IMG/VR virus record: IMGVR_UViG_3300031774_000018
Location: 1-56,614 of that record
Strand: one strand, 5' to 3'
DNA from: a virus
Taxonomy: Duplodnaviria > Caudoviricetes
Length of the DNA stretch: 56,614 nt
Part shown: positions 590 to 56,614 of the stretch, piece by piece
Numbering within the stretch: position 1 is the first letter of the stretch
Layout of the letters: each line of letters begins with the position of its first letter
Program-made: the position numbers and the translations under genes
The notes under the pieces: model-generated
What the model was told of the DNA's origin: nothing
Database searches by the model: none
The model's input: the letters and a program-made list of their open reading frames with translations, nothing else

Positions 590-847
590 GCTAAAAAAGT
601 AGTTCCAGCTCAAGTAGCTACAAGTGCATACTTCCAGCAAGAAGAAGCTCAAGAAGCTGCTGTAAAATATGCTAAACAAGCACAATCAAAATATTTTAGT
701 AATGTTGCTCAAAATGTTTTACAAAGACCAGTAGAACCTAATGTATCTTATTTAGATTTTAATACAAACTTAACACAAGAACAAATGTTTTTATTACAAA
801 ATTCATATAATGGTATAATCTCTGGAGGAGAAAGAAGTTATGGATAA
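2..847 (+). CDS. 3' part of wrap-around gene (begins at 55697); putative internal virion/ejection protein
   Basis: Frame of ORF 275..847 is open back to position 2 and is the same frame as the ORF starting at 55697 through the terminal overlap; about 396 aa in total. Confidence 0.75.
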   Translation, partial: LRDGISNLTGGFIEGSDKSYVIDGTTIDVADAKGSRKAGGLTKGQREVNRSNAKLEANKIELKKEESLKNIIEGNDDGKTLLESGDLSRKQMRDLKKVGKLEKAQAGDGYSFTEYKEQSYTKPTKLKIDSRKWNKEVEQKWYHSGKAADGTGIVGYNPSLDTGGPAFLDSSTHGIMEPSGSANWREHVRDSKEFTVAKKVVPAQVATSAYFQQEEAQEAAVKYAKQAQSKYFSNVAQNVLQRPVEPNVSYLDFNTNLTQEQMFLLQNSYNGIISGGERSYG

Positions 848-1472
848 TATAGATAGACAACAAGTTCCATCAGATATGGAACAGTATATGTTTGAAGGTC
901 CTGTTCCGGGACAATCTTTAACTAATGACCCTAGTAACAGAGCACCTTGGGAAGAAGCACCTAAGTTTACTTCTGTTAAAGATGCAAGAGAAAAAATATT
1001 TTTTGACTTAACACATCCTGATAGAATAGAAAGTGTACAAAAATTAATGATAAATAAAATTCCTGTTAATACTATTGCAGAAGTTTTATTAACTCAAGGA
1101 TTCAGAGAAGGTGCTTTCAATCCAGATATGTTAATGCAATTAATGGAACCTACTATGGTTATATTAATGGCTATAGCTGAGAAATCAGGTATTAGACCTA
1201 TAGTAGATGGCGAAGATAACGATAGAGATTTTGATGATGATGATGTCGGAATGCCTACTACTGACCCTAGAAATGCTGGACCAATACCTGAGCAGATGTT
1301 AAATAGAAGAAGACAGAAGCTTATGCCTAAAGGAAATATAAATCCAATGGCTGTTGGTAAAGATATTAGAACACAATTAGATAATTTAAATGTTGAAAAA
1401 GTAGAACAGAGTATATTACAAAGACCTAAACCTACTGGAGATATGAAAAGTTTATTAGACAGAGGAGAATAA
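840..1472 (+). CDS. Hypothetical virion-associated protein
   Basis: 210-aa ORF, GGAGGAG RBS, coupled to neighbours in the internal virion gene cluster. Confidence 0.65.
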   Translation: MDNIDRQQVPSDMEQYMFEGPVPGQSLTNDPSNRAPWEEAPKFTSVKDAREKIFFDLTHPDRIESVQKLMINKIPVNTIAEVLLTQGFREGAFNPDMLMQLMEPTMVILMAIAEKSGIRPIVDGEDNDRDFDDDDVGMPTTDPRNAGPIPEQMLNRRRQKLMPKGNINPMAVGKDIRTQLDNLNVEKVEQSILQRPKPTGDMKSLLDRGE

Positions 1473-1473
1473 G

Positions 1474-3627
1474 ATGGCAGATGAAATAGGAAATTTAGTT
1501 TCGAATATGGATAATATGTCTTTAGAAGACATAGGTAGTTCCTTATTATCTAGACAAGCTAGATTAAATGCAGAAGCAGCAAAAGAAGCTAAGAAGCAGG
1601 CAAGGATTCAAAATGTTTTAGGATTAATTGGTGTAGGTGTAGCTATTACTAAAGATGCTAAGAAAAGAAGATTAGCTGAATTAGAAGAAAAAAAAGTATG
1701 GGAAAGAGGTGATGATGAAGCTCAGGCTTCTCAATTTAGAACTAATTCAGAAGCAGTAAAACATTTCGTTGATTTCGATAATTTAAATCTATGGGAAGGT
1801 CAAGATTACTTAAATTTTAAAAACAATCCAGAGGAATTAAAATTTTATTATGGTGATACAGATATATCAGAACTTTCTGAATCACAAGTTAGGAGTGCTT
1901 ACTTACATGATAGTGATAGAATAGGAAGTATTGCCTTACAGTTTCGTGCTCCATTTGATGAAGCATTAAAAAAGAAAATGAATCCTCGTAGATATGAGGA
2001 ATTTGTAGGTAGTAAAGATTATGAAAAGGTACTGGAACTTCATGGTATGGATATAGCTAATCATTATTATAAAAATGTAGCTAAGGAAGGAGAACCTTAT
2101 AGACCTCAATATGAAAATTTTATTGATAACGGATTAGAATTATTTAATTTAAAAGGTCCTGATAGGGACAAATCTGCCGAAGAATTTTTAAGTAGAGCAC
2201 AAGGTATAACTCCTATGGATGTTAGTAGAGTAGAAGCAGCTTATATAGATAGATGGGGAACTGAAAATTATGATAAAGGATTAATTGGTGGTGTTATTGA
2301 TGGAGCTAGAAAGCTTGGAGCTTGGAAGGATGATACAACTCCTAATATGTTTGAAAGTTCAAGTAAAGCAGACTGGTTATTTAATAGAGACCCATTAGAA
2401 GGAAAATTTGAAATGAATTTATCTTCTGTTGTATATGATAGTGTTAATAATAGATTACAAGAATTTGAAAGTAATACTTTACCCGGATTAAGCCGAGAGA
2501 GTTTATTGGAATTAGAGTTACAAGTAGACGAAGATTATACACCATATACACAATATGACGATTATAAAGAACAAGGTTTACTTTCTGCTAAGAACTTTAC
2601 ATATAAAGCTTTGTACGGAAATCGAACCAGAGAAGAGATAACAGCTAGTGCTTTAGTTCATATGTCGGTGCCTACTTATGAAGGAGAAAATCAGACTCAT
2701 AAAGGTTTAGGATGGCGTATGATTTGGAGGAGAGCTGACAGATATTCAGATGATTTAGGTGAGCTTGAACTAAAGGCATTCCATACAGACACAGCTAAAT
2801 TAGCTATAGCCATGGAATTAGACCCGAAAAAATACAGACAAATCTATGGTAATATGGTAGGAACTTTAAATGGATTCGAAAGTAATGATGAATCTGCTAT
2901 GGTAGAATATGATAGATTTGCTTCTGATGAACAAGGTAGAATAATAATAGCTTCTAGAATGTTAATGCGAGAAGGTTTCTATAGTGAGGGAGTTCAAGCT
3001 CATGAAGGATATGATTTCGAAACAGACACAGTTGATAGATTTGATAAATATTCTGTACCTAGAGGTTATAATACTCATAATAATATAATGGCTCACGCAG
3101 AAAATAATTATATTTATGTAGATAAAAAGGGATGGCATTTAAATAATGATGTTAAGGGAGATGGTAGTGGAGGTTGGAGTGAGTTAAGTCCTCAGAAACA
3201 AGCTCAAGTATGGCATACTACTCTTATGAATATTGGTAATCTAGAGGTAGAAAATCAGATTGATTTAGTAGATATATATAATGAGTTTACTCAAAGTATT
3301 CCTCATCCAATTATGGGTACTGTGGATGTTAATCAGTATCAGAGATGGCTAGCAGATGATTCAGCTAGAGCAGTAATATTTGGTGCTGACTTAGGACCCG
3401 ATTATAATATGCCTGTAGATAAATGGTCAGAGGTTATGAATAAAAGAGGAACAATGAATCTTGATATCAATCATTGGAGTGACTCATATTATTTCCCACA
3501 AGTGTCAGTACCTAGGACATTAGGTAGTACTCAAAATCAAGGTAGTAGAAACGAATATTTAAACCGAATAAAAATGATTAAAGACTACGGGAGCCTTGAA
3601 GCTCCGGAGGTTGCTGGAAAAAAGTAG
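1474..3627 (+). CDS. Putative internal virion protein; ends at a -1 frameshift site
   Basis: 717 aa, GAGGAG RBS, N-terminal helical/hydrophobic segment, last codons GGA AAA AAG TAG. Confidence 0.7.
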   Translation: MADEIGNLVSNMDNMSLEDIGSSLLSRQARLNAEAAKEAKKQARIQNVLGLIGVGVAITKDAKKRRLAELEEKKVWERGDDEAQASQFRTNSEAVKHFVDFDNLNLWEGQDYLNFKNNPEELKFYYGDTDISELSESQVRSAYLHDSDRIGSIALQFRAPFDEALKKKMNPRRYEEFVGSKDYEKVLELHGMDIANHYYKNVAKEGEPYRPQYENFIDNGLELFNLKGPDRDKSAEEFLSRAQGITPMDVSRVEAAYIDRWGTENYDKGLIGGVIDGARKLGAWKDDTTPNMFESSSKADWLFNRDPLEGKFEMNLSSVVYDSVNNRLQEFESNTLPGLSRESLLELELQVDEDYTPYTQYDDYKEQGLLSAKNFTYKALYGNRTREEITASALVHMSVPTYEGENQTHKGLGWRMIWRRADRYSDDLGELELKAFHTDTAKLAIAMELDPKKYRQIYGNMVGTLNGFESNDESAMVEYDRFASDEQGRIIIASRMLMREGFYSEGVQAHEGYDFETDTVDRFDKYSVPRGYNTHNNIMAHAENNYIYVDKKGWHLNNDVKGDGSGGWSELSPQKQAQVWHTTLMNIGNLEVENQIDLVDIYNEFTQSIPHPIMGTVDVNQYQRWLADDSARAVIFGADLGPDYNMPVDKWSEVMNKRGTMNLDINHWSDSYYFPQVSVPRTLGSTQNQGSRNEYLNRIKMIKDYGSLEAPEVAGKK

Positions 3628-3663
3628 ATAAGGTAGAGACAGGAGATACTAGCTCTCTACCTT
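3606..3663 (+). promoter_or_regulatory. Programmed -1 ribosomal frameshift signal
   Basis: Internal SD-like GGAGGT 3606-3611, heptamer A_AAA_AAG 3618-3624, 5-nt spacer, perfect 10-bp stem AAGGTAGAGA (3630-3639)/TCTCTACCTT (3654-3663). Confidence 0.8.
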
Positions 3664-4385
3664 TTACACCACCTGACAAATGGGCTAATGTAACTAAGGA
3701 TGATATATTTGGACAAGATATCCAAAATACTCCACTATACGATGAAAATACTAGAGAGGAATTAAGTAATTACCAGAGGAGAATGAATAATGTATTTGTT
3801 TCTGCAGGCTTTGCTCCCATTCCTTTTAATGATAAAACAAATAAAGCAACTGATACTCTAATAAGCTTTATTGCATCTAATGAAAGTGGTGGTGAAAGTA
3901 ATCCACTTATTGCAACCAACCCTGACTCAACTGCAAAAGGAGTTTTTCAATTTACTGATGAAACAACTAAGACAGCAGTTGTAAGACTTGTTAATAATTC
4001 TAAGTTTGGAGACTATGAAGTACCTAATGATGTACAGGTATTATATGATGAAATAATGTCAGAGGGATTAGAGGCAATAGATATTCTTAGATTATCTCCT
4101 ACTTCGCAGACTTTATTAGCTTTCTCAAATTTAATAGAACGACCTGTTTCTATAGATGGTGTAAAGCAAGATGGTTTAGGTACTGAATTAATGTGGAATT
4201 ATTATAGTGCAGCTCCCGGTTCTAAAGAGCAAGCCCTAGCTGCAAAAAGAATTTATGAATTAACACATCATACTGATGCAGGAAATAAGAATATGGGTCC
4301 TATTAAAAAAATAAAATATGCACTAGGTAAGGATAAGAATATTGAAAGAAATTTACTAAAATATTATCCGGGATATAAGGACTAA
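3624..4385 (+). CDS. Lytic transglycosylase/lysozyme-like domain, probably expressed as a -1 frameshift extension of 1474..3627
   Basis: Frame of ORF 3783..4385 is open from the slip site; motif IASNESGG...STAKGVFQF resembles the SLT-type catalytic Glu-Ser and AxGxxQ motifs. Confidence 0.7.
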   Translation, partial: VDKVETGDTSSLPFTPPDKWANVTKDDIFGQDIQNTPLYDENTREELSNYQRRMNNVFVSAGFAPIPFNDKTNKATDTLISFIASNESGGESNPLIATNPDSTAKGVFQFTDETTKTAVVRLVNNSKFGDYEVPNDVQVLYDEIMSEGLEAIDILRLSPTSQTLLAFSNLIERPVSIDGVKQDGLGTELMWNYYSAAPGSKEQALAAKRIYELTHHTDAGNKNMGPIKKIKYALGKDKNIERNLLKYYPGYKD

Positions 4386-4387
4386 AT

Positions 4388-7300
4388 ATGGCATTACAAA
4401 GAGCAGGTAGTTTAACTTGGGAAGCTATTAAAAGAAATCAGCAACGAGCTAAAGAAGAAGAACTACTAGAAAAAGAAAGAAAGTTACAAGCACATAATAA
4501 CTTTCTTGTCCCTGAGATTCCAGATAGAAGTCTTAAAGATACTAATACTATAGATGTCATAGAGAGCTCATTAGAAAAAAGCTCTCGTAGACCTTTAGAA
4601 TCTTTAGGTAATAAAATAACTTTAACCCAACTTAAAAACGATGACGAGTTTGCTGATACAGCAGAACGATTTATGGAAAGTATTAATCGTGATGAGAACA
4701 TATATGAATATCTAAGGGATGCTAATTTTAGTTTATCTTCTGCTGCACAAAGAGCTGCTGAGATGAAGAGATGGGATGAACAAACTTTACAAGATTATTC
4801 ATATTTAAGAAATAGATTTAATAATGCTGAAATTGGAAACTGGAAAGAACGAGTAGGTTTAATAAAAGATTTAGGTGGTGATATTCTTCTTGACCCTCTT
4901 AACTGGCTTACTGCTTTGTTAGCACTTCCTAGTGCTGGTAGTTCTTTAGGCTTTGGTCTTTCAGCTAGAGCTGTATCACAAGCTGCTATTAATAAAGGAG
5001 TAAAGGAACTTGCTAAACAAGGAACTAAAAGATGGACTAAAGAACAAGCTGAGAAATCAGTTAAGTATGAAGCAGCTAGAAGATTTGCTAAAGTAGGTGC
5101 TGTAGAAGGTGCTGCATGGACAGGACTACATGATTATTTTATGCAAGATATTGATATTAATCTAGGTCTTCAAGATGATATAGAAGCAGATAGAATAACA
5201 AAGTCAATGTTAATGGGTGGAGCATTTGGTGGTGCTATTGGTGGGGTAGCTGGTAGATATTTAGCAGGTCCTGCATATTCTAAAACATTACAAAAAGAAT
5301 TTGATTTCGCTGCAGAAGGTAATGTAGATGTATTTGTAGGTCCACTAGGCGAAAAGCCATTTTATAAAATAGGTAGTGAACAACCATCGCCGAGACAAGG
5401 AACTTTATTTGATGATGTTGAACAACCTAAACAGACTAAAGAGACTAAACCAAATCCTCGTAAAGAAGAGGCTGCAAGACATGAAACAGAATCTAGAGCT
5501 AATTCAACTGTCCATAATAAATTTAATGAAGAAGATAGTACAAACTTTTTAGATTGGAAAGAAGCCTCTGATAAAATAGGTGAGATTGGCAGTAAAGCAA
5601 TAAGTCCAATGACATGGTTCTTAAGAACATTCATACAAAAACCTACACAAAAATTTGTTGATGTATTAAAAGATAATGCATCTCCGACATTAACTAATAA
5701 TCTTCGTAAATTAAGAAATGATTTTGATAAAGGAATAGCACAAGGATTAGATTCTGCTGGTGGAAGTGCTAAGTTAAGAAAAGAATATGCTGATGAAATG
5801 AATCCAGATGGACCTAAGAGTCAACTTACAACTCAAAGTTATGGAGAATATTTTGGAGAACTAATTGGTAAATATCATGTAGGGTTAGAACAAACCTTTG
5901 GAGTTTTAGGATTAACTGGATGGAGACAAGTAATAACTAAAGAAACTAATAATAAGATGAAGACTTTATTACAAAGTAAAGATATTCAAGTTCTTAGACA
6001 AAGAGAATTATTATCAGACATCCGTGACCCTAACCCAAGATATGGAAGATACACAGGTGAAGAACATATATTAGTTAATATGGGTTCAAAAAAAGGGAAA
6101 GCTAATTGGCAGAAAGTAGAGATTGGTTATAATCATAATGGTATTGAATTAGATAAGAAAATGTATTTTGGTTATACGAGATTAAGAGGATTATATGATG
6201 ATGTTTACGATAGAGCAAAGATGGAAGGACTATTTAAACAAGGTGGTCCACAAAGATTAGGTTACTTCCCTAGAAAATTTAGTCATAGTGCTATACAAAA
6301 AAATAGAGTAGGTTTAGAAAGACAAATAGTAAAAGCTAACCATGCTAATCCTAGTAATGAAATAGAAACATTTAAAGATTTTGTTCAAAAAGTTGGTGAT
6401 GAATGGGTGGATGTAGGTGAGGCAGCTCATAGAGCTTCTAAAGGAAGAGACTGGAATCTTTTTGCAAATCTTAGAGAGACTGGTTCAAATTCTTTTGAAG
6501 AGCTTGCTGCTAGAAAATGGTTCTGGGACACTTTAAGTAAAGGTCAAAGAAAAAGAATTTCTAGTAGTACAGAAGTTAAAGCTTGGTTAAAGAAAAATGA
6601 TTACAAAGGTAACGAAGCTTGGAAACAATCTTGGAGATATCTAGTAGATAAGATAGATGATAAAATGGATATTAATACAAATATTAATGGAGTAAAAACT
6701 AGAATATCTTTTGGTAAAGAAAGCCCTTATAATTATCTTACAAAGAAAACTAATGAAACTGTAGACTTATATGAATATGCTAGAAGACTTAAAGCTAGAC
6801 ATATCGTAGATGACATGTTAAATAAAAGACATGTGCCATATGAATTACAAGGATTAAATAAAAGATATGGAGAAAGTTCAGGATTCTTACATACTAGAGT
6901 ATTTAATAGAATACCTGATAGTTCATTAGATGAATTTGTTGATACTGATGTTATGAGAGTATCACAAGATTATTTTAATAATGCTTCACAAATATTGGCT
7001 AGGTCTAGATATTTTGGTAATAATATTGATGACTTGAAAAAAGATATCTTTGAACCTATTAGAAGAGAATTAGAATCTTCTGGTATGAGTGCAGATGAAG
7101 CTTCTAAAGTTACTGGTGACTTTATGAAAATGATTAGTAGAGTTACAGGAGTAGACCAAAGTCATAGAAATAGTTGGTTTGCTAGAACACCGGCTGGTAG
7201 AAGGACCGGAGATATATTAAAGTTATCTCAACAAATGGCTCATTTACCATTAGCTACACTTTCTAGTATAACTGAACCTATGATTCTTTTAACTAGAGAT

Positions 7301-9082
7301 TTTTCTACTGATACAGCAAAAACTATTGGTAAGTCTTTAGTTAATGAAGGTGGAAATATAATGTCTCGTACTGTAAGACATGTACAAATGGGCAGAGGAA
7401 AAGTCTTACAAGGTAAAAGAAGTTTAAAACATTTAGGTGTTGAAGAGGATGCTGGAAAATATAAAATATCTCAGGTTTCAGATGATGACTGGTTTGAATT
7501 ATATAAAACTGGATTAGCTTTAGAACAAACTGTTATGGAAAGAATTGAAGGATTAGCTGGAGAAGCTTTACATGGTAGTGGAATGAAGTCAGCACAGAAT
7601 TTCTTTTTTAAATCTAACCTACTAACTCAATGGACAAGAGCTGTTCAACTTGCTTCTTATACTACAGGTAAAAGAATTATTAGACAGCATTCTAGAGCTT
7701 TGGCTACAGGTAGAACTGACTTAGGAAATAAATTAAGTTCTGGTAGAAGAAAATTAATAAATGAGGAATTAAGAGATTTAGGTATTGAACCTAAAGAGGC
7801 TGCTACTTGGTGGAATAATAGTTTAAATAAAGCAACTGGTCAGTTTGATGAGAACTTATCTAAAGGTATAACAGGAAAGTTTGAAATAGGCGAAGGAAAA
7901 ATATTTTTACAGAATGCACAATTCTATCAAAAAATGAATCGAGGTGGGAATAGGTTTGCAAAAGAGATTATTCTAAACCCAAGTGTCCAAGAAGCTAATA
8001 GACCATTATGGTTCTCAAATCCTAATGCTCAGTTATTAATGCAATTTGCTGGTTACCCAACAGTATTTACTAATACTATTTTGAAAAAATTTGCTAGAGA
8101 TATAGCTAAAGATGGAAGCAGAAAAGAAATGTATAGAACTGGTAAGCTTTTACCTACTGTTTTCATGATGACTGCAGTAGCTCATGTAGGTAATGAAATC
8201 AGAAGTAATGGTAAAGCTAAAATAGACTATGCAACTGGAGAAGAAAAACCTACTCGTTCTGTAATAATGGATGCATGGAGAAGATGGGGTGGCTTAGGTC
8301 CTTTTGATTATACTGCAAGATTTGCAGACCAACGAGAAAGAGGAATGGGATTACCTACTGAGATATTAAAATCTATTGGTGGTCCTCTACCCCAAGATGT
8401 AATAGACATGATTGCTTATCGTAAAGGTTTTGCAGAAGTAGGTGTAAGTAATCTTCCTTATTTTCAGTTATATGATATATTCTTTGGTGAAGGTACTAAA
8501 GCTAAACTAAGAAAGGTAGCAAGAGGTAGTAGTGGTAAAAGTAAAAAATCAAAACGAAAGAAAGATAGGTATGGATTTGATAAAGGTGGTTTAGTTTATA
8601 ATGTTCCGAATGTAGTAAAAGAACCTGATGAAAGGATTGACAAATTGACAGGTAAACGCTATAATAACAATATAGCATTTTTAGAGGATGAAGAAGATAG
8701 AGCTTTAAAAGGTCAAATGGAAGGGCTAGGATTAAGAGAGCCTTTTGTAGTAGGTGGTTTAGTACAATCTTTAGGTAAAACAGTACAAAAAGGTGTGTCA
8801 AGAAAGTCTGCTGTAAATCTAAGAACTCGTTATTTAGACCCAGAGTATTTAAAAACTTTAAAACGCAAATCATCTAAGGCTGCAGAATCTTCAAAGTTTA
8901 ATGTACGAGCTGACGATGTATATGAGATGCTAACTCATGGTCATATAACTGTAAAAGAGGCTAGAACATTATTAAGAGATTATGGATATAGAAGATATAC
9001 TATTGAAAAAATAATGAGAGGTTTTAAAGATGTCGATTACAAATTAGGCGATGATTTTGTAACTTGGAGTGATGATTTATGA
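4388..9082 (+). CDS. Large internal virion (DNA ejection) protein
   Basis: 1564 aa, last of the virion cluster before the lysis genes, Gly/Ala-rich hydrophobic segments near the N-terminus; position analogous to the largest ejection protein of podoviruses. Confidence 0.7.
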   Translation: MALQRAGSLTWEAIKRNQQRAKEEELLEKERKLQAHNNFLVPEIPDRSLKDTNTIDVIESSLEKSSRRPLESLGNKITLTQLKNDDEFADTAERFMESINRDENIYEYLRDANFSLSSAAQRAAEMKRWDEQTLQDYSYLRNRFNNAEIGNWKERVGLIKDLGGDILLDPLNWLTALLALPSAGSSLGFGLSARAVSQAAINKGVKELAKQGTKRWTKEQAEKSVKYEAARRFAKVGAVEGAAWTGLHDYFMQDIDINLGLQDDIEADRITKSMLMGGAFGGAIGGVAGRYLAGPAYSKTLQKEFDFAAEGNVDVFVGPLGEKPFYKIGSEQPSPRQGTLFDDVEQPKQTKETKPNPRKEEAARHETESRANSTVHNKFNEEDSTNFLDWKEASDKIGEIGSKAISPMTWFLRTFIQKPTQKFVDVLKDNASPTLTNNLRKLRNDFDKGIAQGLDSAGGSAKLRKEYADEMNPDGPKSQLTTQSYGEYFGELIGKYHVGLEQTFGVLGLTGWRQVITKETNNKMKTLLQSKDIQVLRQRELLSDIRDPNPRYGRYTGEEHILVNMGSKKGKANWQKVEIGYNHNGIELDKKMYFGYTRLRGLYDDVYDRAKMEGLFKQGGPQRLGYFPRKFSHSAIQKNRVGLERQIVKANHANPSNEIETFKDFVQKVGDEWVDVGEAAHRASKGRDWNLFANLRETGSNSFEELAARKWFWDTLSKGQRKRISSSTEVKAWLKKNDYKGNEAWKQSWRYLVDKIDDKMDINTNINGVKTRISFGKESPYNYLTKKTNETVDLYEYARRLKARHIVDDMLNKRHVPYELQGLNKRYGESSGFLHTRVFNRIPDSSLDEFVDTDVMRVSQDYFNNASQILARSRYFGNNIDDLKKDIFEPIRRELESSGMSADEASKVTGDFMKMISRVTGVDQSHRNSWFARTPAGRRTGDILKLSQQMAHLPLATLSSITEPMILLTRDFSTDTAKTIGKSLVNEGGNIMSRTVRHVQMGRGKVLQGKRSLKHLGVEEDAGKYKISQVSDDDWFELYKTGLALEQTVMERIEGLAGEALHGSGMKSAQNFFFKSNLLTQWTRAVQLASYTTGKRIIRQHSRALATGRTDLGNKLSSGRRKLINEELRDLGIEPKEAATWWNNSLNKATGQFDENLSKGITGKFEIGEGKIFLQNAQFYQKMNRGGNRFAKEIILNPSVQEANRPLWFSNPNAQLLMQFAGYPTVFTNTILKKFARDIAKDGSRKEMYRTGKLLPTVFMMTAVAHVGNEIRSNGKAKIDYATGEEKPTRSVIMDAWRRWGGLGPFDYTARFADQRERGMGLPTEILKSIGGPLPQDVIDMIAYRKGFAEVGVSNLPYFQLYDIFFGEGTKAKLRKVARGSSGKSKKSKRKKDRYGFDKGGLVYNVPNVVKEPDERIDKLTGKRYNNNIAFLEDEEDRALKGQMEGLGLREPFVVGGLVQSLGKTVQKGVSRKSAVNLRTRYLDPEYLKTLKRKSSKAAESSKFNVRADDVYEMLTHGHITVKEARTLLRDYGYRRYTIEKIMRGFKDVDYKLGDDFVTWSDDL

Positions 9083-9525
9083 ACATAGATAAATGTAAAG
9101 AACAAATTAAAAGACATGAAGGTGAAGTCCTAGAAATCTATTTAGATAGTTTAGGTTATAAAACTTTAGGAATAGGACATTTATGTCAACCACAGGACCC
9201 TGAATATAATTGGGAAGTGGGAACTGCTGTAACTCAAGAAGTAGTTGATATGTATTTTGATAGTGATTTTTCAAAGCATGTTGTTGAAGCAATAGAAGTT
9301 GTAGGTAAAGATGAGTTTAGAGATTTACCAGATGCAGTAAAAGAAGTAATAGTTAATATGTGTTTTAATTTAGGTGGTACTAGATTATCTAAATTTAAAA
9401 ATATGTTAAAGGCATGTAGAGAACACGACTGGAAAAAGATGGCTGTTGAAATGGAAGATAGTAAATGGTTTAAACAAGTAGGTCGTAGAAGCATTGAGTT
9501 ACAAGAAGTAATCTTAAGTCAATGA
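9079..9525 (+). CDS. Endolysin, T4-lysozyme-like (GH24)
   Basis: HEG...IYLDSLGYKTLGIGH catalytic E-x8-D-x5-T pattern; NMCFNLG and SKWFKQVGRR motifs. Confidence 0.92.
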   Translation: MNIDKCKEQIKRHEGEVLEIYLDSLGYKTLGIGHLCQPQDPEYNWEVGTAVTQEVVDMYFDSDFSKHVVEAIEVVGKDEFRDLPDAVKEVIVNMCFNLGGTRLSKFKNMLKACREHDWKKMAVEMEDSKWFKQVGRRSIELQEVILSQ

Positions 9526-55696: not shown

Positions 55697-56614
55697 ATGT
55701 TAAAGAAAATAGGTAAAAAAATAGGAAGTGCCTTTAAAAAAGTTGGCAAGAAACTTAAAAAGGGTTTAAAGAAAGTAGCAGGAAAGTTTGCTGAACTAGG
55801 ACCTTTAGGTAGTATTGCATTATCTTTTGTGGTACCTACTATTGGACAATGGTTCCAAGGACTCCCTGATGGAGGATTCTTAAAGACTGTAGCAGATGGT
55901 GTATCAAGTACTGTAGGTGCAGTTAAAAATGGTGTAGGTAAAGTATTCAATAGAATTACAGACGCTGTTGAAACTGGATTAAATGGTATTGCTGCACCCT
56001 TTACTAAGGCAGGTATGAATGAGAGAGGATTCGGTAGTGCACTTAGAGATGGTATTAGTAATTTAACTGGTGGCTTCATAGAAGGTTCTGATAAATCATA
56101 TGTAGTAGATGGCACGACTATAGATGTAAAAAATGCTAAAGGTAGTAGAAAGGCTGGTGGTTTGACTAAAGATGAAAGAGCAATAAATAGAAGCAACGCT
56201 AAGTTAGAAGCAAATAAATTAAAAGTAGCTAAAGATGATTCTTTAAACAACATAATGCAGGGAACTGACGAGGGTAAGACTCTATTAGAATCTGGAGATT
56301 TAAGTAGAAAACAAATGAGAGATTTAAAGAAAGTAGGAAAATTAGAAAAGGCTCAAGCTGGTGATGGATATTCCTTTACTAATTATAAAGAGCAATCATA
56401 TACTAAACCAACTAAACTAAAGATAGACTCAAGAAAATGGAATAAAGAAGTAGAGCAGAAATGGTATCATTCAGGTAAAGGAAGTACAGGATATAATCCA
56501 TCCCTTGACACAGGAGGTCCTGCATTCTTAGATAGTAGTACTCATGGAATTATGGAACCATCAGGCTCAGCAAATTGGAGAGAGCATGTTAGAGATAGTA
56601 AAGAATTTACAGTA
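55697..56614 (+). CDS. 5' part of wrap-around putative ejection protein
   Basis: AAGGAG RBS, ATG at 55697 (MLKKIGKKIGSAFKKVGKKLKK...), open to window end, continues as 2..847. Confidence 0.8.
   Translation, partial: MLKKIGKKIGSAFKKVGKKLKKGLKKVAGKFAELGPLGSIALSFVVPTIGQWFQGLPDGGFLKTVADGVSSTVGAVKNGVGKVFNRITDAVETGLNGIAAPFTKAGMNERGFGSALRDGISNLTGGFIEGSDKSYVVDGTTIDVKNAKGSRKAGGLTKDERAINRSNAKLEANKLKVAKDDSLNNIMQGTDEGKTLLESGDLSRKQMRDLKKVGKLEKAQAGDGYSFTNYKEQSYTKPTKLKIDSRKWNKEVEQKWYHSGKGSTGYNPSLDTGGPAFLDSSTHGIMEPSGSANWREHVRDSKEFTV
56041..56614. repeat. Right copy of imperfect terminal direct repeat
   Basis: Aligns to 1-589. Confidence 0.95.

Follow-up and report, generated by a model that had tools for sequence, protein, structure and literature searches.

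The 56,614-nucleotide (nt) DNA of the IMG/VR virus record IMGVR_UViG_3300031774_000018 (Caudoviricetes), analysed here as a whole and referred to as the window, contains at positions 1,474 to 4,385 two open reading frames (ORFs), in different frames, that appear to make up a single gene. The upstream ORF encodes 717 amino acids (aa) and its 3' end reads GGA (3616-18) AAA AAG (3622-24) TAG (3625-27), while the -1 frame continues beyond this stop codon and encodes a domain resembling lysozymes and lytic transglycosylases. We propose that ribosomal frameshifting at the slippery heptamer A_AAA_AAG, which would yield products of 717 and 970 aa, is the best reading of the locus, and from its sequence we give this reading a probability of about 0.62. 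The features concerned are as follows, in the coordinates of the window:

1474..3627, + strand: zero-frame ORF of 717 aa, the predicted short product and N-terminal body of the family protein
3606..3611, + strand: Shine-Dalgarno (SD)-like GGAGGT, 6 nt 5' of the heptamer, coding for P-E-V and present also in a relative (L001) in which the gene is fused
3618..3624, + strand: slippery heptamer A_AAA_AAG, in X_XXY_YYZ register with the codons GGA AAA AAG, and likewise in a second split allele (L003)
3624..4385, + strand: 253 codons and a stop codon in the -1 frame, comprising a linker and the lysozyme/lytic transglycosylase-like domain, the C-terminal part of the predicted 970-aa long product
3625..3627, + strand: zero-frame stop codon TAG, directly abutting the heptamer
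3630..3663, + strand: hairpin with a perfect stem of 10 base pairs (bp) and a 14-nt loop (some inner pairs form in the minimum free energy fold), 5 nt past the heptamer
3783..3785, + strand: first ATG of the -1 frame, an internal methionine in fused homologues and not a likely start

An earlier description of this DNA, made from its letters alone (the sequence-only reading), had reported the ORF end, the heptamer, the GGAGGT at 6 nt and the 10-bp stem at 5 nt, and all of its coordinates are correct. Its claim that the -1 frame is open from the slip site to 4385 also holds, with 253 stop-free codons. The last preceding stop in that frame is TGA at 3597-3599, and the 262 open codons that follow, beginning at 3600, lead to the TAA at 4383-4385, so that the opening precedes the slip by only 8 codons; the predicted product sizes are 717 aa and 717 + 253 = 970 aa. 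In the hairpin the arm AAGGTAGAGA (3630-3639) pairs perfectly with TCTCTACCTT (3654-3663), and the fold reaches a minimum free energy of -14.7 kcal/mol; relative to dinucleotide shuffles its z is -3.2, with an equally good fold in 3 of 200 shuffles.

Two further possibilities at the site were set aside. The CCTG at 3672-3675 is a possible pseudoknot partner for the loop, and at 4 bp this pairing is too short to evaluate and is not relied on; in L003 the corresponding sequence is TCTG, at an unchanged distance, so that three Watson-Crick pairs and a G-U would be left. Readthrough of the TAG was rejected since the zero frame meets another TAG three codons on.

It is the combination of elements, and not the single pieces, that stands out in the window. 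Stop-free runs in the -1 frame of the 19 other plus-strand coding sequences have a mean length of 6.3 codons and a maximum of 48, compared to 253 here. There are five in-register copies of the heptamer, and that at 3618-3624 is the only one with a stop codon directly after it, the only one followed by a long -1 ORF (253 codons versus 2-11 at the other four) and the one with the strongest downstream fold (-14.7 versus -6.4 to -8.8 kcal/mol). Another of the five (1968-1974) is within the same 717-aa ORF; ribosomes that slipped by -1 at that copy would come to an end 5 codons on, and a 12-bp interrupted hairpin (-8.8 kcal/mol) is located 3 nt past it.

Fused and split alleles of the gene

The sole relative at this locus in IMG/VR, L001, has a single 983-aa ORF that extends over both parts, and in the DNA alignment of the junction the window has exactly five extra A relative to it. 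A scan of metagenomes added eight loci, and four of these (L004, L005, L009, and L010) have single ORFs of 940, 968, 853, and 851 aa, respectively, with the same C-terminal domain at the end. Thus, among the seven loci that cover the junction (L006, L007, and L008 end short of it and are excluded) the gene is fused in five, with lengths of about 850-983 aa, and split in two, the window and L003. The window matches the fused proteins in frame 0 through ...EVAG and then in frame -1 from V(D/A)(K/E)VE, and hence the shift must lie within GGA AAA AAG. That the two ORFs are parts of one gene, as proposed from the sequence-only reading, is therefore borne out by the in-frame fusions at five of the seven loci, and these alignments make it well supported that a -1 shift at the heptamer is required to reach the wall-cutting end. 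Neither the 717-aa ORF nor the C-terminal part encoded in the -1 frame (the C part) had a match among 50,697 cultured-phage records in DNA and protein searches, and no relative was found in the species-representative genomes scanned.

The second split allele, L003, is interrupted in the same manner as the window, with an identical heptamer, stop codon and hairpin core and an intact -1 ORF. In the C part the two differ at 101 of 759 aligned bases and all of the indels are multiples of three, while with 101 randomly placed substitutions the frame would stay free of stops with a probability of only ∼0.009. The two alleles do not differ over the 44 nt that extend from the heptamer to the 3' arm of the hairpin, while the surrounding region has 73-93% identity. 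The hairpin is also stronger in the split alleles (-14.7 kcal/mol in the window and -13.2 in L003) than in the fused L001 (-10.5, z -0.1). The stem is 8 bp in L003, a weaker version is present in L001, and these three sequences are too few for an analysis of covariation. As to conservation of the heptamer and stem in related genomes, the heptamer and stem core are thus identical in L003, a close relative of the window, and the gene is fused at the other five loci.

Two in-frame length differences were noted in the C part. A 21-nt deletion in the window relative to L003 (3640-3663 versus L003 3058-3100), directly past the 3' arm, places TT beside ...TCTCTACC and in this way extends the stem from 8 bp to 10 bp. 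The domain of the window ends in YYPGYKD* (4350-4385), 11 residues (33 nt) earlier than those of L001, L003, L004, and L005, where the end reads ...YYPAWNDFQNxRYNxKK(D/N).

The number of A residues at the site is decisive for the reading of the locus, since with A7 in place of A6 the gene would be in frame. Contigs assembled from four of four public runs, representing four studies, contain exactly A6, with no differences and no gaps over the span 3594-3647, and the same A6 is found in L003, a contig from another metagenome. For two of the runs (X1 and X8) a flag marks them as potential sources of the window DNA; the other two (X11 and X15) have no such flag, and in these the site is covered by record 6 of X11 (3555-4162) and record 12 of X15 (3403-4111). 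An assembly error at A6 is consequently very unlikely; this check is based on contigs rather than raw reads and is compatible with a minority A7 variant. An exact-pattern scan of IMG/VR for A6 to A8 variants of the site returned none.

The split allele is the one that is usually assembled. At least half of the sampled words of the stretch 3000-4600 are present in 17 of 20 listed marine runs, the 20 coming from 14 studies, and the RNA runs X18-X20 contain small shares of the stretch. The 200-aa ORF that results from the split is found on 10 contigs, the L003-type ORF occurs on a 55.8-kb contig, and the split ORFs recur on 10 and on 2 contigs. In addition, P0014 is a free-standing ORF of 211 aa that begins at the same internal methionine and is of the sequence type of a distant fused lineage (L005/P0003). 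Its contigs are at most 1524 nt, and it could be either a second, independent split allele or an effect of fragmentation.

The appended domain, the body and the surrounding genes

The appended domain was assigned to lysozyme- or SLT-like proteins in the sequence-only reading, and this assignment is upheld by a fold search and a conserved motif that agree with each other, with SLT matches that are sub-threshold. The structure model of the C part has a mean predicted local distance difference test score (pLDDT) of 73 and a predicted template modelling score (pTM) of 0.74. Among the 20 best rows of a wide structural search with this model, numbers 2-18 and 20 bear the title of a lytic transglycosylase, lysozyme, muramidase, endolysin or chitinase, with modest Z values (4.8-6.8), and the weak top rows from Foldseek are mostly MltE, MltF, gp144, and GH19 chitinases (E of at least 0.28). 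The top match in Pfam is SLT (PF01464), which is below threshold (E 0.017, 15.1 bits versus a cut-off of 21.3), with residues 71-122 aligned on profile positions 8-55; across the family, two of 11 members match SLT at E ≤ 1, the best at 7.4e-4. A PHROG transglycosylase family matches the C part with E 7.7e-4. E87 and Q109 are invariant and S88 nearly so in the 11 sequences, and the profile places this E87-S88...F-Q109 block on the catalytic ASIES...TGWFQF of the phiKZ gp144 lytic transglycosylase, in a weak alignment (E 0.07). Going by the model, the C part is predicted to be a divergent lysozyme/lytic transglycosylase-like fold and is a putative enzyme.

A library-wide search with the C part returned seven proteins at E ≤ 0.001, in which the domain is located at the C-terminus of proteins of 737-940 aa (five cases), at the end of a 418-aa protein (one) or internally in a 1280-aa protein (one), and no free-standing form was found in that search. 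Three of the long proteins (P0008, P0010, and P0012) share the N-terminal motif of the 717-aa ORF of the window.

The 717-aa body is mostly helical and has a conserved N-terminus, MAD..SNM.NMS.E.LGSSLL. It has no Pfam or PHROG family, a tblastn search of 50,697 phage records gave nothing, and a profile of 10 relatives run against PDB sequences gave matches only through the SLT part (E of at least 1.5). Its matches in the Atlas are viral hypothetical proteins with scores of at most 0.87. The structure model of the body is poor (pLDDT 55.6, pTM 0.36) and its Foldseek rows are noise (E of at least 0.14 and template modelling scores of at most 0.11).

The neighbouring genes provide a context for the body:

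840..1472, + strand: 210-aa ORF directly upstream, the first of a triad and at the position of T7 gp14 by gene order only
4388..9082, + strand: 1564-aa ORF directly downstream, the third of the triad and at the position of T7 gp16 by gene order
9079..9525: 148-aa lysozyme-type gene that shares its first 4 nt with the end of the 1564-aa gene and matches a PHROG endolysin family (E 3.7e-19)

The 210-aa ORF has no Pfam or PHROG match, and the same ORF precedes the gene in L001 and L003. The triad of 210, 717 (+253) and 1564 aa follows portal, capsid, tail-tube and fibre genes, across the ends of the record, and from gene order only the 717-aa body is probably an internal or ejection protein. The sequence-only reading had assigned it to the virion and its ejection apparatus, to which the gene order conforms and for which no Pfam, PHROG, PDB-profile or fold match was obtained. 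The lysozyme-type gene means that the phage has a second wall-degrading enzyme beside the triad.

The genome combines a T7-like replication module with a podovirus structural module, and its TerL-like protein is 70% identical to that of the Pelagibacter phage HTVC115P, which suggests that it belongs to the HMO-2011-type group. The sequence therefore points to a marine podovirus related to HMO-2011-type pelagiphages, with SAR11 as its probable host. No tRNA gene was found in the phage genome, and a scan of genomes with the phage Hsp20 returned only unrelated ones. The window is a complete 56.6-kb record that is classed as linear, with ORFs that run off both ends (281 aa at the 5' end, 1-847, and 306 aa at the 3' end, 55697-56614), and it probably represents a permuted circle that was opened within a structural gene.

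Within the triad (840-6800), synonymous divergence among the window, L001, and L003 is low (dS 0.01-0.17) and no stop codon arises anywhere. The differences are clustered in patches (for example 2640-2736, 3434-3533, and 4213-4380) of 52-77% identity within DNA that is 95-100% identical, and this patchy change in the triad proteins looks mosaic or diversifying. The only other perfect 10-bp stem in the window (4477-4507, loop of 11 nt) is near the start of the 1564-aa gene. It is overlapped by an 87-aa antisense ORF (4438..4701, - strand) that is also open in L001 and L003, and this shared openness may just reflect the ∼99% DNA identity there.

Proposed frameshifting and its alternatives

In the proposed mechanism, most ribosomes would read through the zero frame and stop at TAG 3625-3627 to give the 717-aa body alone, while some would slip back by one base on A_AAA_AAG, probably by tandem slippage of two lysine tRNAs, and continue in the -1 frame to give the 970-aa protein (...EVAGKK-VDKVETG...). 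The slip might be aided by a pause at the adjacent stop codon and by the hairpin 5 nt downstream. The outcome would be two length variants with the wall-degrading domain on only some of the copies, and on this reading the A-run in the linker between body and C-domain is one base short of in-frame in this allele. We infer that slippage is ribosomal and occurs at a useful rate, that the ratio of the two products is of importance and that they are located in the virion.

The alternative in which the wall-cutting domain is a separate gene, translated alone from ATG 3783 as a 200-aa protein, is hardly tenable. It is what gene callers predict, the corresponding ORFs of 200 and 211 aa are in the protein collection, and GAGGAG lies just 5' of this ATG in the window. 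The GAGGAG (3776-3781) is however only 1 nt from the ATG, and L003 has no SD-like sequence before the corresponding codon. The conserved C-domain begins ∼30 residues before ATG 3783, and the upstream residues include the block NVT..IFG.DIQ..PLY.ENTRE.LSNY, which is maintained even in relatives that are ∼41% identical to the fused protein P0002 over its full length. The methionine itself is residue 54 of the -1-frame segment and falls within a helix predicted by the structure model (residues 43-60). The linker is free of ATG, GTG and TTG in both split alleles, over 53 codons in the window and 60 in L003, and reinitiation was rejected since no start codon follows in the -1 frame. The gap of 155 nt that would separate the two genes is unusually long for this block, in which adjacent genes touch or share a few bases, and, as noted above, a free-standing domain was not found library-wide. 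The sequence-only reading had considered this ATG too close to its SD for efficient initiation, and we concur that it is an implausible start. The 200-aa ORF reported by gene finders is thus almost certainly not free-standing, and annotation pipelines that split the locus miss the 970-aa protein.

Equally hard to sustain is the view that the split is a sequencing or assembly artefact and that the true sequence is A7 with the gene in frame. Homopolymers are at times miscounted and the inspection covered contigs, not raw reads, but the four independently assembled runs agree exactly, including the two that are not flagged as sources, and both the A6 of L003 and the recurrence of split ORFs on 10 + 2 contigs would have to be explained in addition. 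Transcriptional slippage is an improbable alternative of a different kind, as an RNA polymerase that adds one A within A6 would generate an in-frame mRNA and the same 970-aa protein, with an identical product (G-K-K-V) at the junction. Efficient slippage by bacterial RNA polymerase requires a run of about 8-9 A or more. There is a precedent for the rescue of an interrupted gene by an A-run in Citrobacter rodentium tssM1, as described in PMC4256274, but the documented run in tssM1 is 11 A and here there are only six. The heptamer register, the adjacent stop codon and the hairpin at 5 nt are moreover features of ribosomal slippage.

The rival that we take most seriously, and still consider unlikely, is a tolerated truncation, in which a one-base deletion in the A-run split a fused gene, the 717-aa body works as such and the wall-cutting domain is lost or made in no more than traces, through slippage that is not under selection. 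The loss would be bearable because another lysozyme is present and the domain is dispensable under most conditions; the separate 148-aa lysozyme gene at 9079..9525 is in accord with this, as is the description of the T7 gp16 transglycosylase as needed only with highly cross-linked peptidoglycan (PMC8954989). The split allele is also a polymorphism within a population beside a fused allele, the C-domain of the window lacks the last 11 residues of every relative, and the ratio of nonsynonymous to synonymous substitution rates (dN/dS) in the C part is ∼1. Indels in homopolymers are in general the most common frameshift mutations. On the other hand, two haplotypes that are 13% apart in the C part are both open with in-frame indels (P ∼0.009), and the 44 nt from heptamer to 3' arm are unchanged between them. 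A dN/dS of ∼1 is likewise seen in neighbours that are certainly functional, so that the C part is not singled out, and the split allele is commonly assembled across many runs and studies.

A number of observations nevertheless weigh against frameshifting as we propose it. Taken alone, the heptamer is ordinary, with five in-register AAAAAAG in 47 coding sequences versus 6.0 ± 2.3 in codon shuffles, and as it is not avoided there is no sign that host ribosomes are dangerously slippery on it. Perfect 10-bp stems with loops of 3-20 nt are likewise ordinary (two in the window versus a shuffle mean of 2.1), and the downstream fold is only moderately unusual, being among the lowest 4.1% of 5158 coding windows of 56 nt. 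Eight of the 10 stem pairs can already form in the fused allele, where they are part of normal coding sequence. As to the stimulatory role suggested for the SD-like sequence, the GGAGGT is present, but it is found equally in the fused, non-shifting L001 and hence is not shift-specific, and it is 6 nt from the heptamer rather than the about 10 nt of Escherichia coli dnaX. The site occurs at only two of the seven junction-covering loci, and in the flanking genes identity among the window, L003, and the fused L001 is 95-100%, which indicates a within-population polymorphism and not deep conservation. In all three pairwise comparisons of these sequences dN/dS is ∼1 (0.8-1.4) for this gene and both of its neighbours, which is silent on the C part and provides no evidence of purifying selection. 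Frameshift mutations are most often of the kind in which a run such as A7 loses one base, and a change from A7 to A6 would itself create the heptamer and the stop; therefore the co-occurrence of a break and a slippery site does not require selection, while recombination with fused alleles could keep the -1 ORF intact. A tolerated A-run deletion that is partly self-rescuing is accordingly an alternative to a programmed site. What stands of the programmed -1 frameshift claimed from the sequence-only reading is that there is one gene and that the shift is bracketed to the heptamer; with the site at only those two loci, a programmed, dose-setting shift remains a plausible hypothesis.

Comparison with known systems

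The closest parallel is the Alteromonas phage vB_AspP-H4/4, in which gene 39 (endolysin) and gene 40 (internal virion protein) are described as linked through a -1 shift at a putative slippery sequence (PMC5658483). The GenBank record annotates the gp39/gp40 frameshift at GTA AAA AAG TAG (L012, 32826-32837), an annotation from a genome announcement and not an experiment. Like the phage studied here, H4/4 is a marine podovirus in which the frame changes where a wall-degrading domain meets an internal virion protein, with the same heptamer directly before TAG and V-D after the slip. The arrangement is reversed, however, as in H4/4 the wall-degrading domain is upstream, on a short product of 161 aa, and the long product includes a 5.9-kb internal virion protein at the gp16 position of T7, whereas in the window the body comes first and the wall-degrading domain is added behind it, in a protein at the gp15 position. 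In addition, H4/4 lacks a comparable downstream hairpin (-6.9 kcal/mol, z +1.2) and its proteins have no detectable relation to those of the window. In both phages the stop codon is followed by ATA and soon by AGGTAG, and past the slip both proteins read K-K-V-D and then, a few residues on, T-G-x-G-D-T or T-G-D-T. Homology of the DNA beyond heptamer and stop is not assumed; six other matches to the pattern in IMG/VR are ordinary in-frame K-K-V-D coding sequence, and the further similarity is probably due to chance.

The sequence-only reading had regarded the site as distinct from the familiar tail-chaperone and capsid frameshifts; those do differ in gene and heptamer, but H4/4 is an annotated precedent. 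Beyond H4/4, the literature searches revealed no frameshift within an ejection protein that carries a wall hydrolase, and in the main text of a study of HMO-2011-type phages (PMC9038755) the words frameshift, internal virion, transglycosylase, lysozyme and ejection are absent.

In T7 the transglycosylase is described as the in-frame N-terminus of gp16, with the conditional requirement mentioned above, and the gp14/gp15/gp16 system is similar in that a wall-cutting domain is part of a packaged ejection protein (PMC8954989). The triad is also near the tail genes and the motif is of the Glu-Ser type. The T7 domain differs in being N-terminal on the largest protein and always in frame, while that of the window is C-terminal on the middle protein, and no sequence or fold match was obtained between T7 gp15 and the 717-aa body. 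Transcriptional slippage on 11 A in C. rodentium tssM1 is described as giving two length variants that are both needed and whose ratio matters (PMC4256274). In both cases an A-run beside a stop is followed by a C-terminal domain in another frame, but the tssM1 run is longer and acts at transcription, while the six A of the window, in heptamer register and with a hairpin, point to the ribosome.

The -1 sites of E. coli dnaX and of IS3/IS911-type elements combine A_AAA_AAG with an upstream SD-like sequence and a downstream stem-loop, and each gives two products from one gene. The window resembles them in the heptamer, in the stem-loop a few nt downstream, in the upstream SD-like sequence and in the two predicted products, and it differs from them in having a stop codon directly after the heptamer. 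The shifted product of dnaX is the shorter one, whereas the shift in the window would add 253 aa, as in IS3 orfAB. The T7 10A/10B and lambda G/GT pairs are -1 ribosomal frameshifts in structural genes that give a minor, C-terminally extended product. They involve a capsid protein and a tail chaperone, use other heptamers and are widely conserved, in contrast to the site described here, which is polymorphic in one population.

If the shift operates, the wall-cutting domain would be carried on a fixed minority of copies in this phage and on every copy in its closest relatives. Fused and shifted alleles in genomes that are >95% identical would hence serve as a natural experiment on the amount of virion-borne muralytic activity that a phage needs, and they also illustrate how a homopolymer deletion can turn into a recoding site. 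Together with H4/4, they allow the tentative, and at present doubtful, generalization that an A_AAA_AAG-UAG frameshift recurs in podoviruses where a wall-degrading domain borders on an ejection protein, at the C-terminus of the middle protein in the window and past the N-terminal domain of the largest one in H4/4, and that it sets the number of enzyme-bearing copies. Such sites would represent a third recurrent class of structural-gene frameshift beside those of tail chaperones and capsids, with fused and shifted alleles competing in one abundant ocean population.

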